From: a virus
Lineage: Duplodnaviria > Caudoviricetes
Strand: one strand, 5' to 3'
DNA: 64,000 nt
Virus record (IMG/VR): IMGVR_UViG_2706795957_000001
Span: 29,578 to 93,577 of that record
Every line of letters begins with the position of its first letter. The stretch's first letter is position 1. Made by a program: the position numbers and the translations under genes. This document shows, piece after piece, positions 19,144 through 27,524 of the stretch. The notes beneath the pieces are model-generated. The model ran no database searches and had not been told where the DNA came from. It saw nothing but the letters and a program-made list of their open reading frames with translations.

Positions 19144-19218
19144 TGCCCTGGGTGGGGCTCGAACCCACGCATCTTCCGATTATGAGTCGGAGGCCTTCAC
19201 CAACTTGGCTACCAGGGC
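19144..19218 (-). tRNA. tRNA with CAU anticodon (Ile2 or Met); CCA not encoded
   Basis: GCCCTGG/CCAGGGC acceptor stem; TCCGA-CTCATAA-TCGGA anticodon arm; GTGGG-TTCGAGC-CCCAC T arm; GA-CTCATAA-TC context resembles Ile2. Confidence 0.93.
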
Positions 19219-21462: not shown

Positions 21463-21834
21463 CCGGGGCCGTATTTGACATCCGAGATGAATGTCCGGAT
21501 CAGTTCGTCGATGGCTTTTCGCTGCCGGCTGGTCAAGACTTCCGAACCCACCGGAGGCTCATAGGGGGGCTGTGCCGCATCCCAGGTCTCGCCAAGCCAG
21601 TCCAGGACCCTCTTGACGGAGATCCCCAGGGCCTCCGCGACGCGCTCGAGGGTCTGCCTTTCAACGAGCCGCGGGTCGGCCTTGCCGGTGATGAGCCGGA
21701 CGACGGTGGTGGTGTGCAGACCGGCTTCCTTGGCCAGAGCGGTTGAAGCTCGGGTCACCCGTCCGTGGATTGGTGAGACCCTGCTTCAGCATCGCTTTGG
21801 CCCAAGGCTGCGGTACTTCAGTGGTTTGTCTCAT
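21429..21834 (-). pseudogene. XRE-HTH immunity repressor, apparently frameshifted (+1) at about 21741
   Basis: MRQTTEVPQPWAKAM...PSFN in one frame continues as ALAKEAGLHTTTVVRL in another; span 406 nt = 3n+1; divergent from the early operon, next to int. Confidence 0.75.
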
Positions 21835-21940
21835 AGTAACGACTAGTGTCTCACGCACAACTGCACGCGTCAACAACGACTGTCGGTGGCCGGCGCTATA
21901 GTGTATCTAACGCACAAGTAGACAGCCAGGAGGCATAAGC

Positions 21941-22165
21941 GTGTCAGACATCAAGGTGGGCGACATCGTCACCATCGGTTCATGGGGTTACCGCTGGACG
22001 GTGACCGGTTTCAAGCTCTCGCCAGCTTCTGGGGGCCGTAAAGCCCTCCTCGCGCGAGATCAAGAGCACGGCTACCGCCGCGGTGACGTCGGCAAGAGCC
22101 GAGGGACGGCGACCATTCGGACCCGTGTAGCGGTCGATACATTGGTCAAGGAGGAGTCCAAGTGA
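21941..22165 (+). CDS. Hypothetical protein, first gene of rightward operon
   Basis: SD AGGAGG; TATAGT -10 near 21897. Confidence 0.65.
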   Translation: MSDIKVGDIVTIGSWGYRWTVTGFKLSPASGGRKALLARDQEHGYRRGDVGKSRGTATIRTRVAVDTLVKEESK

Positions 22166-23199
22166 CAACCCCCTACGACCTCCTCGAGACCGGCGCCATC
22201 ATCAATGGACGCGCGCAAGTCATCGGCAAGTTCGCGAACGGATCACCCGAGTGGCACGCCGCGCGCCGCGGGCATGTCGGCGGGTCCGAGATCTCCGCGA
22301 TCGTCGGCCTAAGCCCATTCGAGTCACGGTTCTCCCTCTGGCACCGCAAGAAGGGTGAACTCGAGGACGTCGAGGAGACCCCAGCCATGGAGTGGGGCAC
22401 CCGCCTCGAGCCAGTCGTCTACGACAAGTACGCCGAGGGTCTCGAAGAGGGTGAGTTCATCACCACCGGCCACACCTTCCGATGCCTGATCCCGGGGCGC
22501 GGCTGGATCAATGCCAACCCCGACGGCATCGTCTGGGCGCAAACCGAAACCGGCGAGTGGTACATCCGTCGCATCCTCGAGATCAAGACCTCGGCCCGCG
22601 GCGAAGGCTACGGAGAGAACGGCAGCGACGGCATCCCGATCTACTACCGATGCCAAGTGCTGTTCTACATGTACTGCCTCGGCGTCAAGCAGGCCGAGCT
22701 GGCCGCGCTGATCTCCGGTGTCGACTACCGCACCTACAAGGTCAACTACAGCACTGAAGACGTCGAGTTCCTCATGAACGCCGGCGACAAGTTCATGCAC
22801 GACCTGAACAACAACGTCCTGCCCGACATCAGCAAGGATAGTACTACCTACGAGGCTGTCCGGCAGATCAACCCCGAGTTGGACCCGGACCTCGAAGTCG
22901 TCATCCCCACCGCACTGGGGGAGTACTACCGATCGATCGAGGAGGCCTACCGCGAGATCAAGGACCTGCGCTACGGCGTCCACGCAGACATTCTCGACCA
23001 CGTCGGGTCCGCGCGCCTGATCAAGCTCGAGGACGGCGAGGTCCTGGCCCGCCGGCAGATGCCTGGCCGTGGCGACAAGCCATACCTGCGCTACGTGCCG
23101 CCCAAGAAGGCCGAGCAGGTGAGCGTCACGGACGCCTACGAGAAGGAGCAGGACCGGCAGGAACGCCTGGCCGCGATGTACGCGCCCGCATCTGTCTAG
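22162..23199 (+). CDS. YqaJ/RecE-like exonuclease
   Basis: EW...RR..VGGSEI, WGTRLEP, ANPDG, LEIKT, Y..QV..YM. Confidence 0.92.
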   Translation: MTTPYDLLETGAIINGRAQVIGKFANGSPEWHAARRGHVGGSEISAIVGLSPFESRFSLWHRKKGELEDVEETPAMEWGTRLEPVVYDKYAEGLEEGEFITTGHTFRCLIPGRGWINANPDGIVWAQTETGEWYIRRILEIKTSARGEGYGENGSDGIPIYYRCQVLFYMYCLGVKQAELAALISGVDYRTYKVNYSTEDVEFLMNAGDKFMHDLNNNVLPDISKDSTTYEAVRQINPELDPDLEVVIPTALGEYYRSIEEAYREIKDLRYGVHADILDHVGSARLIKLEDGEVLARRQMPGRGDKPYLRYVPPKKAEQVSVTDAYEKEQDRQERLAAMYAPASV

Positions 23200-23206
23200 T
23201 CTCTAG

Positions 23207-23235
23207 TTGACTCCAGCAGACACATGACGTAGGCT
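23207..23235 (+). promoter_or_regulatory. SigA-type promoter TTGACT-N17-TAGGCT
   Basis: Near-consensus hexamers upstream of a 540-nt gene-free leader. Confidence 0.8.
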
Positions 23236-23291
23236 GATGGAGTCAGACAGAGAGCGACAACGAACTGTCTAACCTCTAACTGAACAGAGAC

Positions 23292-23460
23292 TTGTGGTTG
23301 GTGGCGTCAAGCCCACCCCTTCTGGCACAAACCATCCCATTAATCACGGGGCTTACTACGCACGCCAGTTGGGGACGTAAGGACGCCCAGCACCCTTCCC
23401 CGGTGCTTGCGGGACTTCAGAGTTCCTTCAGCTCGACGGCTCCTGCGCCACCAGCCACAA
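23292..23460 (+). ncRNA. Unidentified structured RNA, copy 1
   Basis: 15-bp closing stem; invariant blocks shared with copy 2. Confidence 0.75.
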
Positions 23461-23468
23461 CAACACTT

Positions 23469-23677
23469 GCGACGCCGGCGTCAAGCGCGCCCCTCGGAGT
23501 GCATCCTGTCCCTTTCCAGGATGCAGGGTCTAGCATGCCCACCTCCGCTCCGACCGGGAAGTAAGGACGCCCGACGGTTGAGCCCTGCGGTTCTCCCCAA
23601 CGAGTTGGCGCTCGTTGAACCACCGCTCCCGTCTGCAGACCACAACATCTGCTCGACGGCTCCTGCGCCGGCGTCGC
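23469..23677 (+). ncRNA. Unidentified structured RNA, copy 2
   Basis: 12-bp perfect closing stem of different sequence; same invariant blocks. Confidence 0.75.
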
Positions 23678-23688
23678 CACAACCCCCA

Positions 23689-23717
23689 CATGAGGTCCGA
23701 GTACCGCGAAGCGGATT
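23689..23717 (+). repeat. 29-nt intergenic motif CATGAGGTCCGAGYRCCGCGRAGCGGATT, copy A
   Basis: Also at 26188 and 27452. Confidence 0.85.
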
Positions 23718-23775
23718 GAACTATCCGGAAATACCAGACAGTTCAAAACACAAGAGAGAAGAGGAGATACAACAC

Positions 23776-23964
23776 ATGGCACGAATCAATCAGAAAACGC
23801 TGGACAGCATCAACACGGCGTTCGAGAACATGGGCCGCGAGATCGACGGGCTGTGGAACTCGATCAACCAGGTCAAGGGAAAGTTGGAAGAGCAGCCATC
23901 CGATGTCCGGATCACCGAGACCCCGTCGGTGCAAGCCGCCAAGGGCGAGGGGGCCTCGGAATGA
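23776..23964 (+). CDS. Small coiled-coil protein
   Basis: SD GAGGAG. Confidence 0.65.
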   Translation: MARINQKTLDSINTAFENMGREIDGLWNSINQVKGKLEEQPSDVRITETPSVQAAKGEGASE

Positions 23965-24473
23965 TCAAGCCGCCATTCCAGCTCGCCACGTTCTTCAACA
24001 CTGGCGAGGATGACCCCTACGGCTGCGTCATGAACGTCGTCGCCTGGCTCGCGGGCGAACCGACAACCGCCGAACCGGCCTGCACCAACTGGCATTTGAC
24101 CAGCCTGGCCCAGACGTTCAATGACAAGCTGCTCATGAAGTTCGCTCCCCACACCCGGGAGTTCGGCACCAACATCGACGGCACGGTACGCATGGTCGGC
24201 GTCGCCACCCCGGAGCAGGCAACCCGGATGCTCGAGGTTGCAGAGATGCTCGTCAACACCTCCGTGGTCAAACGGCAGGACAGCATACCGTGGCTCCGAT
24301 CGGTCACCGCGCTGTATGCACCCAACAAGATGGGCAGCCATGGGCTGGCTACGGCCATCGTCGATGACGCCGACACCTTCGACGAAGCGGTGACCAGCAT
24401 GCTGATCATCCTCGAGGACTTCCACAGCACCTTCGCTGACCAACTCACCCCCAAGGAGCAGGCACTTGTCTGA
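23961..24473 (+). CDS. Hypothetical protein
   Basis: ATGA overlap; GCVMNVVAWLAGEP....PAC motif. Confidence 0.65.
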   Translation: MIKPPFQLATFFNTGEDDPYGCVMNVVAWLAGEPTTAEPACTNWHLTSLAQTFNDKLLMKFAPHTREFGTNIDGTVRMVGVATPEQATRMLEVAEMLVNTSVVKRQDSIPWLRSVTALYAPNKMGSHGLATAIVDDADTFDEAVTSMLIILEDFHSTFADQLTPKEQALV

Positions 24474-25191
24474 ACTGCAACAGGCCGCACAGGGCCAGGC
24501 GGACGCCGGCCCAGTCCAGGTCATCTACAGCCACGCCAAGGAGATCCAGAACGTGCTCGCCAAGGGCACCGACATGGACCGCTGGCTGCAGATGGCCCGA
24601 CTCGCCGTCATGCGTGACCCCAACCTCGTCAACGCCGCCAAGCGCGACCCCGGCTCGCTCATGCAGGCCATGCTCGACTGCGCCGAGAAGGGACACATCC
24701 CCGGCACCGAGGACTACTACCTCGTGCCGCGCAAGGGTGGCATCCAGGGCATGGAGTCCTGGAAGGGAATCGCCAAGCGCATCATGCGTTCTGGCCGCTA
24801 CCAGTCCATCGTCGCCGAGGTCGTCTACGAGGGCGAGGACTTCGACTTCAACCCCAACACCATGGACCGACCCGTCCATCAGATCAAGTACATGGCGCGC
24901 ACCTCCGGACAGCCCGTCCTGTCCTACGCCTACGCGGTCGACCACGAAGGTAAGCCGTCCACCATCGCAGTCGCCGACCCTCGCTACATCGCCAAGGTCA
25001 AGGCCAACTCCAAGGGCACCGTCTGGGCCGACTGGGATGAGGCGATGTACAAGAAGACCGCGGTCAAGATGCTCGTGGACTACGTCGACACCTCCTCGAC
25101 CGACCGTCGTGGTGTGTCTACCGTCCAGGTAGACGGACCGGTCGGAACCTTCATCGACGGCGTTCTCGAGATCGAAGGGGGCGACCAGTGA
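24466..25191 (+). CDS. recT: RecT-like single-strand annealing protein
   Basis: SL.QA.LDCA..G..P....YLVP, AEVVYEGEDF, W.DWDEAM.KKTAVK. Confidence 0.9.
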   Translation: MSELQQAAQGQADAGPVQVIYSHAKEIQNVLAKGTDMDRWLQMARLAVMRDPNLVNAAKRDPGSLMQAMLDCAEKGHIPGTEDYYLVPRKGGIQGMESWKGIAKRIMRSGRYQSIVAEVVYEGEDFDFNPNTMDRPVHQIKYMARTSGQPVLSYAYAVDHEGKPSTIAVADPRYIAKVKANSKGTVWADWDEAMYKKTAVKMLVDYVDTSSTDRRGVSTVQVDGPVGTFIDGVLEIEGGDQ

Positions 25192-25406
25192 GCGACCACG
25201 AGATCATCCGCTCCGTCCAGTTCAGCGACGGCACCAACATCCTTCGCGTTGCGGTCGACGGACACTTCGCCGAGTTCGGAATCGGTGAAAAGTATGTCTT
25301 CGTCCCCATTGAGAAGTTGGACGAGTTTGCCGACGAGCTCAAGAAGATCGCGCCGAAAAAGGCGACGCTCGCCACCCGGGACACGATGCAGGTGATGGGT
25401 CGATGA
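25188..25406 (+). CDS. Hypothetical protein
   Basis: Coupled ORF. Confidence 0.6.
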   Translation: MSDHEIIRSVQFSDGTNILRVAVDGHFAEFGIGEKYVFVPIEKLDEFADELKKIAPKKATLATRDTMQVMGR

Positions 25407-26140
25407 CCATCCAGGTTCGCGTAATCTCCTCGCCCACAGTCACCCTCGCCGGGTTCACCATGATCACCCAGACGGTCCGAGAGAAGCTCGGCGCCGGCGA
25501 CTCTGGGTCGATGGCGCAGTTCCTCGCCGAGTTCGGCGGTCGGGTCTGCTACCAGAGCTGGGACAAGCCCAACCCGAAGACGGCCACCAACCAGGGCTAC
25601 ATCGAGAACATCCAGGAGCAGCGCCACTTCAGCGTGCTCGAGCACAGCTCGGCCAGCTTCTACATCGAAGGTGTCTCCCGGTCGCTCACCCACGAGTTGG
25701 TGCGCCACCGCCACTTCTCGTACTCGCAACTGTCGCAGCGCTACGTCGACTCCAGCGATGTCGCGTTCGTGCTGCCGCCGGCCTACGAGGGTGACGACTG
25801 GGCGACGAAGGTGTTCGTCGAAGGCCGCGCCCGGGACCTGCGGGACTACGCCGAGCTCGAGGAGCACCAGAAGTCCAAGGGGCTCAACAAGAAGCAGGCC
25901 CGAGAGTCTGCCCGGTCGGAGCTGCCCAACAGCACCGAGACCAAGATCCTCGTCACCGGCAACCTGCGCGCATGGATGGAATTCCTCATCAAGCGTGACA
26001 ATCCCGCCGCCGACGCCGAGATCCGCCGCCTGGCCAAGGAGCTCCGCGAGCACCTCATCTTCATCGCACCAGATGTCTTCGGTGACACTGCCCGCAAGCT
26101 CTGGGACGACTCGTTCGCCCAACGCGAGGCGCGCGCCTGA
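25403..26140 (+). CDS. thyX: Flavin-dependent thymidylate synthase
   Basis: GRVCYQS, HFSVLEH, SRSLTHELVRHRHFSYSQLSQRY, NLRAW. Confidence 0.97.
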   Translation: MTIQVRVISSPTVTLAGFTMITQTVREKLGAGDSGSMAQFLAEFGGRVCYQSWDKPNPKTATNQGYIENIQEQRHFSVLEHSSASFYIEGVSRSLTHELVRHRHFSYSQLSQRYVDSSDVAFVLPPAYEGDDWATKVFVEGRARDLRDYAELEEHQKSKGLNKKQARESARSELPNSTETKILVTGNLRAWMEFLIKRDNPAADAEIRRLAKELREHLIFIAPDVFGDTARKLWDDSFAQREARA

Positions 26141-26187
26141 GACCCGACGGCCTCGCTGGGAAACCGGCGAGGCCGTTCTCACATCCA

Positions 26188-26216
26188 CATGAGGTCCGAG
26201 TGCCGCGAAGCGGATT
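26188..26216 (+). repeat. 29-nt motif, copy B (preceded by a GAAA-capped hairpin at about 26146-26177)
   Basis: CATGAGGTCCGAGTGCCGCGAAGCGGATT. Confidence 0.85.
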
Positions 26217-27244: not shown

Positions 27245-27277
27245 TTGACTAACGACCCGGGAGACGTCTAATGTCTA
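27245..27277 (+). promoter_or_regulatory. Promoter TTGACT-N18-TAATGT with GTCTA-N-TGTCTA repeat over the -10
   Basis: Seen directly in sequence. Confidence 0.7.
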
Positions 27278-27451
27278 ACCCATCACAAGAGTGTGATTTC
27301 GCCACCCTGTTCGAGGCATGCAACAGCCAAGCCGAGTATGAGGTCACCTACCGATGGTGGGGGCGGAAAACCTTCTGCGCCAGTCACTTCCGTGAGATGA
27401 AGGTCGACGGCGACAAGCATGTACTAAGTGTAACCGCCGCGGCGCCCCAGG

Positions 27452-27480
27452 CATGAGGTCCGAGCGCCGCGGAGCGGATT
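27452..27480 (+). repeat. 29-nt motif, copy C
   Basis: CATGAGGTCCGAGCGCCGCGGAGCGGATT. Confidence 0.85.
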
Positions 27481-27524
27481 GACACACACAACACACCACA
27501 ACACGACAGGGAGGTCGCAAACAC

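Follow-up and report, generated by a model that had tools for sequence, protein, structure and literature searches.

Two RNA units between recE and recT

What occupies the gap between the recombination genes recE and recT of a caudoviricete virus? The stretch of DNA analysed here (the window) is the right-hand 64 kb, exactly 64,000 nt, of the 93,577-bp IMG/VR record IMGVR_UViG_2706795957_000001. In it, recE, which encodes a YqaJ/RecE exonuclease, is separated from the next open reading frame (ORF) by a gene-free gap of 576 nt, and the approximately 540 nt that run from the -10 element of a promoter onward to the next start codon (23776) hold two copies, unit 1 and unit 2, of a structured RNA domain. 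Both copies belong to a new RNA family, whose domains fold independently and are about 170-215 nt long; we describe it below and consider its possible functions (coordinates in Table 1).

Both units carry GGCGTCAAGC, GTAAGGACGCCC and GCTCGACGGCTCCTGCGCC in the same order, and this core does not vary between the copies, although the rest of their sequence is widely different. An earlier note, made from the sequence alone, had described a tandem pair of RNA units with three invariant blocks lying between recE and recT, behind a promoter of the form TTGACT-N17-TAGGCT, and direct reading of the window together with the gene order bears out each of these points: the blocks are there in order, the closing and inner stems that it quoted pair as stated in both units, and the promoter is present as described, is conserved and is of SigA type. 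The stretch that joins one P1 stem to the other, CACAnCAACACUUG, is conserved over its whole length in all three tandem loci.

Table 1. Features at the locus, in positions of the window (strand + is the strand as presented)
Feature	Positions	Strand	Details
Helix-turn-helix (HTH) repressor gene		-	First in gene order around the finding
74-aa ORF			Between the HTH repressor and YqaJ/RecE exonuclease genes
YqaJ/RecE exonuclease gene (recE)	22162-23199		Stop codon 23197-23199
SigA-type promoter	23207-23235	+	-35 TTGACT 23207-23212; 17-nt spacer; -10 TAGGCT 23230-23235
5'-terminal leader hairpin	23242-23270	+	Predicted fold; AGACAG 23245-23250 / CUGUCU 23265-23270
Unit 1, complete domain	23291-23460	+	P1 = 23292-23306 / 23446-23460
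Unit 1 J1/2	23307-23315	+	UCAAGCCCA; family consensus UCAARCNCR
Unit 1 P2 hairpin	23316-23374	+	CCC/GGG base conserved, stem covaries, tip variable
Unit 1 inner domain	23375-23444	+	J2/3 ACGUA 23375-23379
Unit 1 P3	23380-23387 / 23438-23444	+	AGGAcGCC / GGCUCCU
Unit 1 P3a hairpin	23389-23407	+	
Unit 1 P4	23409-23432	+	
Unit 1 J4/3	23433-23437	+	UCGAC
Inter-unit linker	23461-23468	+	A/C-rich; CAACACUU
Unit 2, complete domain	23469-23677	+	P1 = 23469-23480 / 23666-23677
Unit 2 J1/2	23481-23489	+	UCAAGCGCG
Unit 2 P2 hairpin	23490-23558	+	
Unit 2 J2/3	23559-23563	+	AAGUA
Unit 2 inner domain	23564-23664	+	P3 AGGAcGCC 23564-23571 / GGCUCCU 23658-23664
Unit 2 P3a	23573-23633	+	Long
Unit 2 P4	23635-23652	+	
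Unit 2 J4/3	23653-23657	+	UCGAC
29-nt intergenic motif	23689-23717	+	CAUGAGGUCCGAGUACCGCGAAGCGGAUU; after unit 2
Shine-Dalgarno sequence	23761-23766	+	GAGGAG; ahead of the 62-aa ORF
62-aa ORF	23776-23964	+	First downstream ORF
170-aa ORF	23961-24473		Between the 62-aa ORF and recT
recT	24466-25191	+	In the + strand gene block
72-aa ORF			Between recT and thyX
thyX (PF02511)	25403-26140		In the recT-thyX gene block

Consensus fold and covariation

How is the domain built? Read from its 5' end, the consensus consists of a CUUG flank, P1 (12-15 pairs), the joining strand J1/2 (UCAARCNCR), P2 with a CCC/GGG base and a variable tip, J2/3 (ANGYA), and then P3 (AGGNGCC / GGCNCCU), inside which lie one or two bases, the P3a hairpin, a U, the P4 hairpin with its GC...GC base, and J4/3 (UCGAM). 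A single G follows P3 and leads into the 3' strand of P1 and the CCACA flank. The fold is two stacked three-way junctions, fully nested, and the invariant bases (about 45 junction nucleotides) sit in the strands that join both of them. The flanks ACUUG on the 5' side and CCACA on the 3' side are conserved around the domain as well.

A covariance model built from nine units, with the long second units left out, recovers all units, the left-out ones included, at 68-192 bits; in the window, unit 2 is found at 74 bits (E about 1e-14) by a model built without it, and unit 1 scores 83 bits. Among 13 units from related phages the covariation that the earlier note had claimed is strong. In the model-fitted alignment of these units 93.8% of cells pair, compared with 39-54% when the partners are slid by 1-3 columns, 25 of the 49 pairs change on both sides, and none of 500 shuffles reaches the observed values. 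Since a model-fitted alignment leans towards its own structure, P1, the P2 base and P3 were recounted on a plain MAFFT alignment, where 96.6% of cells pair and five P1 pairs carry double changes. For example, the fourth pair of P3 is in this alignment A-U, G-C (phage WilliamBoone), G-U or U-A (unit 1 of the metagenomic assembly L136). Folding energies agree: relative to shuffled sequence, z is -4.9 for unit 1 and -4.4 for unit 2, and no shuffle out of 200 folds as well. The minimum-energy fold of unit 2 already has P1, P2, P3, P3a and P4, and that of the phage Bachita unit, folded alone, is the whole consensus; unit 1 can be made to form P3 at a cost of only 1.9 kcal/mol.

Good folding energies are obtained for the minus strand too, as would be expected of any reverse complement, so the assignment to the + strand rests on the excess of G-U over A-C pairs (37 versus 9) and on the promoter, which faces into the units. 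The same counts bear on whether the region holds any RNA at all, or instead codes for protein or carries arrayed DNA-binding sites. It does accommodate ORFs of 90-121 aa, and the BrutonGaster and Bachita records place hypothetical genes at the locus; these genes, however, differ in strand and frame between the phages. Moreover, the alignment of the window with BrutonGaster has 11 and 13 gap columns in the two units and none in recE, the indels are not multiples of three, and compensatory changes extend across six helices. A coding or DNA-site reading is already contradicted by the covariation, the G-U excess and the indel pattern, and we give it virtually no weight; from the way in which the sequence changes, the RNA region is non-coding.

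Is the core pseudoknotted? The earlier note had proposed a crossed core made of two pairings and had likened it to P3/P7 of group I introns. One of the pairings, AGGAcGCC/GGCUCCU, is real and is the P3 described above, but it is nested inside P1 instead of crossing another helix. The other, UCAAGC/GCUCGA, is unsupported rather than disproved: both of its sides are invariant apart from one change and show no covariation, a constant internal A.C mismatch interrupts it, and P4, a helix with covariation further in, has the GC of GCUCGA at its base. The sole change, UCAAAC in the second unit of a metagenomic phage (three assemblies), replaces a G-C pair by A.C. The likeness to group I introns did not hold up, given that there is no Intron_gpI match, the crossed pairing is unsupported and the flanking genes are complete. 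Two further candidate features were considered and set aside. Pairing of the Shine-Dalgarno-like GGAGGU of J2/3 with ACCUCC after P1 shows no covariation, for WilliamBoone and L136 keep ACCUCC together with GGGAUGC, and the anti-Shine-Dalgarno-like P4 loop UCCUUUC is confined to one lineage of units.

Relatives, promoter and downstream sequence

The family matches none in Rfam 15, in line with the earlier note, which did not recognise it. A search of the window at gathering thresholds gave only a tRNA at 19144-19218; at E up to 10 there were four weak, unrelated matches far below threshold (mir-929, a CRISPR repeat, serC and H19). ARAGORN found no tRNA or tmRNA in 22800-24200, and no description of the motif was found in the literature searched or in genome annotations. 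The RNA family is new; its position and architecture place it among structured leader RNAs in the broad sense.

Its known distribution is restricted to a single phage cluster, Gordonia CQ. BLAST against 50,697 phage records returned similarity in 20, all of them Gordonia terrae phages (Smoothievirus and Oneupvirus), the nearest being BrutonGaster with 86% identity over the region, and in the related loci the motif keeps its position behind recE and this promoter. Bachita, Smoothie, ClubL, Culver, WilliamBoone, Miskis and Abscondus have one copy each; BrutonGaster and a metagenomic phage represented by three assemblies (L136, L387 and L388) have a tandem pair. In the metagenomic phage the promoter and first unit resemble those of the window phage and the second unit resembles that of WilliamBoone, so the upstream and downstream units seem to form two paralogous lineages; the downstream unit (unit 2 in the window) is the counterpart of the Smoothievirus single copy. 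The motif is absent from phages whose RecE is 40-60% identical (Daredevil, Mollymur, JonJames and four metagenomic contigs); of these, Daredevil and Mollymur have recE next to recT, and JonJames has other ORFs between the two genes. Scans of IMG/VR with invariant-block patterns and a covariance-model filter returned only BrutonGaster, Cucurbita and one metagenomic phage. A search of metagenome and genome collections used too loose a pattern to be informative and gave only chance matches among the matches listed, and sampled genomes from the order of an Amycolatopsis genome gave 0 of 401 by pattern and 0 of 151 by covariance model, a weak test.

The -35 TTGAC and the -10 TAnnnT pattern are invariant in all nine aligned phage leaders, with TTGACG in one phage, and transcription would start near 23241-23243, about 50 nt ahead of the units. 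Sites of the form TTGAC-N17-19-TANNNT number 11 in the window, against 1.4 expected (11949, 23207, 27245, 32819, 55735, 57940, 58161, 61004, 61347, 61612 and 62356); those at 23207, 27245 and 32819 are on the + strand, and several of the minus-strand sites have TTGACTTCCACT in common. A long structured leader is found only behind the promoter at 23207. The earlier note had also taken the genes downstream for a single operon of about 27 kb; with further promoters of the same type at 27245 and 32819, the downstream block is not one such operon. The leader of the 27245 promoter (27281-27524) contains a Cys/His-rich open frame, CDFATLFEACNSQAEYEVTYRWWGRKTFCASHF..., which has no obvious start codon and ends at the third copy of the 29-nt motif treated below.

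The transcript probably begins with a small covarying hairpin, followed by a conserved UCUAAC tract. In the leader alignment, judged by eye, the hairpin stem varies yet still pairs, as AGAGGG/CUCUCU in Bachita and AGGGAGU/ACUCUCU in WilliamBoone. The word CTGTCTA or its complement TAGACAG recurs at 23192-23198, just upstream of the -35 element, at 23265-23271 in the leader, and at 21919-21925, near the early promoter beside the repressor gene, and these repeats may be an operator half-site; a comparison of the early promoter region 21750-21945 with the 23207 promoter for a shared repressor operator found no common word of at least 8 nt.

Beyond unit 2 come the 29-nt motif, a variable hairpin and a strong Shine-Dalgarno sequence. 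The motif, CATGAGGTCCGAGTNCCGCGRAGCGGATT, has three + strand copies (23689-23717, 26188-26216 and 27452-27480), each 30-65 nt ahead of a start codon; it can fold into a CCGC-GRA-GCGG mini-hairpin and also reads as a mini-ORF, MRSE[Y/C/R]R[E/G]AD, without a Shine-Dalgarno sequence. It is a generic motif and does not belong to the RNA units in particular. Neither a terminator nor an alternative pairing tied to P1 was found downstream of unit 2. Directly after the thyX stop codon lies a perfect 14-bp GC-rich hairpin without a U-tract (26146-26176), which may be a terminator of the actinobacterial type inside a co-oriented gene block, and three ORFs stand between it and the next promoter.

The ORFs immediately downstream of the RNA vary among the phages compared, whereas RecT and a thymidylate synthase are always found downstream in the loci examined. 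The synthase is ThyX in the window phage, BrutonGaster and Bachita and ThyA (PF00303) in the metagenomic assembly L387 (5446-6252), a non-orthologous replacement at the same position. The 170-aa ORF (phrog_13065), which is absent from BrutonGaster, has homologues only in phages and metagenomes and lacks a Pfam domain; the Abscondus record calls the homologous product a tyrosine integrase, a label that looks wrong.

Possible functions and known systems

What might these domains do? The earlier note had suggested a ribozyme, a processive antitermination RNA or a decoy against host defence. From the conserved SigA-type promoter directly upstream, we infer that the domain is made on the + strand, in the 5' leader of the recT-thymidylate synthase block of cluster CQ phages. 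Phages and mobile elements are known to use antiterminators that consist of RNA alone or are led by RNA (PMC9378689, PMC8191782), and put, EAR and conAn2 RNAs head long operons of phages, mobile elements or polysaccharide loci. By analogy with these, we tentatively propose, with a probability of about one in three, that the folded domain acts in cis on RNA polymerase or on an elongation or termination factor. RNA polymerase that starts at the 23207 promoter would then read through the long untranslated leader and past downstream stop signals to reach the early genes, a second copy of the unit would raise the efficiency, and the mode of action would be like that of HK022 put, Bacillus EAR or plasmid conAn2 RNAs.

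Several observations favour an action on elongation over a gene-specific switch. With 12-15 GC-rich pairs, P1 is too stable for a switching helix. Unit 2 starts 8 nt after unit 1, which leaves unit 1 without an expression platform; the sequence after unit 2 is generic and recurs at two other intergenic sites; and the first downstream ORFs vary between phages. The hairpin after thyX looks like a terminator and is separated from the next promoter by three ORFs. Other observations weigh against action on elongation. The promoters at 27245 and 32819 make long-range read-through less necessary, Bachita has no room for the thyX hairpin, its next gene overlapping the end of thyX, and in a consensus scan terminator-like sites on the + strand were no commoner than in shuffled sequence. 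Furthermore, the domain is larger than put and multi-branched and shares no sequence with put, EAR or conAn2, and its long closing stem and conserved flanks, ACUUG...CCACA, fit a processed stable RNA equally well.

Such a processed RNA is the alternative that ranks second, and we regard it as nearly as likely as control of elongation in cis: the units would be cut at their conserved flanks and accumulate as free RNAs or ribonucleoproteins (RNPs). In these forms they would bind to a partner from the host or the phage, one example being a decoy or sponge directed at a host defence or at an RNA-binding protein of the host. The units are self-contained, a P1 of 12-15 bp brings their ends together, and the flanks ACUUG and CCACA are conserved along with the inter-unit junction; a tandem pair would double the dose, and an invariant core between divergent copies suits a highly conserved partner. 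However, the units have neither a terminator nor a promoter of their own, transcription must run into the next genes, and no neighbouring gene is a conserved partner, the 170-aa ORF being missing in BrutonGaster. A doubtful third possibility is a riboswitch-like sensor in which the junction core binds a small molecule, perhaps related to nucleotides or folate in view of the thymidylate synthase gene, and controls the recT-thy genes. The location in a 5' leader, the multi-stem junctions with invariant joining strands, the variable peripheral hairpins, the covarying helices, the single and tandem forms (as in glycine riboswitches) and the thymidylate synthase that is always downstream would all suit a sensor. 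The units have a covarying, aptamer-like leader domain, but they do not have the competing expression platform: the stability of P1 is far too high for switching, nothing tied to it would serve as a terminator, an anti-terminator or a partner that sequesters the Shine-Dalgarno sequence (the downstream 100 nt are generic), the first downstream genes are variable, and the distribution is confined to one phage cluster.

RNAs that are large, have several junctions and keep the junction bases invariant usually prove to be riboswitches, ribozymes or RNP scaffolds; new examples are seldom found and often uncover new biochemistry. It is conceivable, if unlikely, that the units represent a new functional class in which the double-junction core binds a host defence or signalling molecule as a sponge or decoy, or forms a new ribozyme; the RNA would be produced in quantity from the strong early promoter, its dose set by the copy number (one or two). 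Less likely again is a 5' mRNA stabiliser, a barrier to the 5'-to-3' RNase J or to 5'-end-dependent RNase E that would protect the early mRNA. Compact GC-rich domains near the 5' end, in tandem in some phages, recall the exonuclease-resistant RNAs (xrRNAs) of flaviviruses, and a covarying 5'-terminal hairpin precedes the units; yet about 45 invariant junction nucleotides are more than a simple barrier would require, and the ring-like pseudoknot that defines xrRNAs finds no support here. We consider it improbable that a new self-cleaving or otherwise catalytic RNA processes the leader. The complex conserved core with its invariant unpaired bases and the conserved flanks at the unit borders might suggest one, but no known ribozyme family matches even at E up to 10, the junctions are unlike the hammerhead, twister, pistol, hatchet and HDV cores, and splicing is not needed because no gene is interrupted. 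Most improbable among the RNA functions weighed here is a primer or origin element, a structured transcript that starts DNA replication as proposed for non-RepA prophages of cluster A mycobacteriophages or ColE1 RNA II. There is precedent in actinobacteriophages (PMC7157519), and here too a strong promoter is followed by a non-coding structured RNA; against it, the phages carry an integrase, the GC skew has no inflection at the site, and tandem, independent closed domains are unlike RNA II. A type III toxin-antitoxin system (ToxI-like) was also tried and dropped: it needs several tandem repeats of about 35-45 nt with a conserved gene for an endoribonuclease toxin behind them, whereas the units are 170-215 nt long and mostly single, and the 170-aa ORF is missing in BrutonGaster.

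Whatever its action, a phage-specific RNA heads a set of early recombination and nucleotide-metabolism genes, and its single and tandem forms, complexity and strictly conserved core make it a good experimental target, with a known range of one phage cluster that limits its general reach. If it does control elongation, actinobacteriophages would have in it their first RNA-based antitermination element, which would also be a compact expression tool for Gordonia and Mycobacterium.

How do the units compare with systems already described? Like ROOL, GOLLD and raiA they are complex, covarying orphan RNAs linked to phages or prophages, but they match none of these, are smaller, lie in an mRNA leader and occur in one phage cluster. 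An xrRNA is a three-way junction that a pseudoknot locks into a ring around the 5' end; the units have three-way junctions and no covariation-supported pseudoknot. Glycine riboswitches similarly place three-way-junction domains, single or paired, in a 5' leader, with conserved junctions and variable hairpins, and differ from the units in that the latter have no Rfam match, a much longer and more stable P1 and no expression platform. The RNA of the cluster A prophage origin is, like the RNA described here, a promoter-driven non-coding actinobacteriophage RNA with a proposed non-regulatory role (PMC7157519); those phages, in contrast, have no integrase and carry parABS, and no conserved multi-junction fold is described for their RNA. 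The conAn2 RNA of Gram-positive conjugative plasmids and the EAR element of Bacillus, functional analogues where elongation control is concerned, are large structured non-coding leader or intergenic RNAs that lie at the start of long mobile-element operons or inside them (PMC8191782). The conAn2 RNA spans 260-600 bp and needs the protein ConAn1 for long range, whereas no conserved protein partner was found for the units, which have no sequence or structural homology to either. Finally, the putL and putR RNAs of HK022, which bind RNA polymerase and thereby suppress pausing and termination, are about 70 nt long and form two stem-loops in a V shape, in contrast to units of 170-215 nt with five helices, two three-way junctions, an actinobacterial host and no sequence likeness. 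As in HK022, a structured phage RNA lies just after an early promoter and has no dedicated expression platform (PMC9378689), and the units share with put its promoter-proximal position at the head of the early genes.
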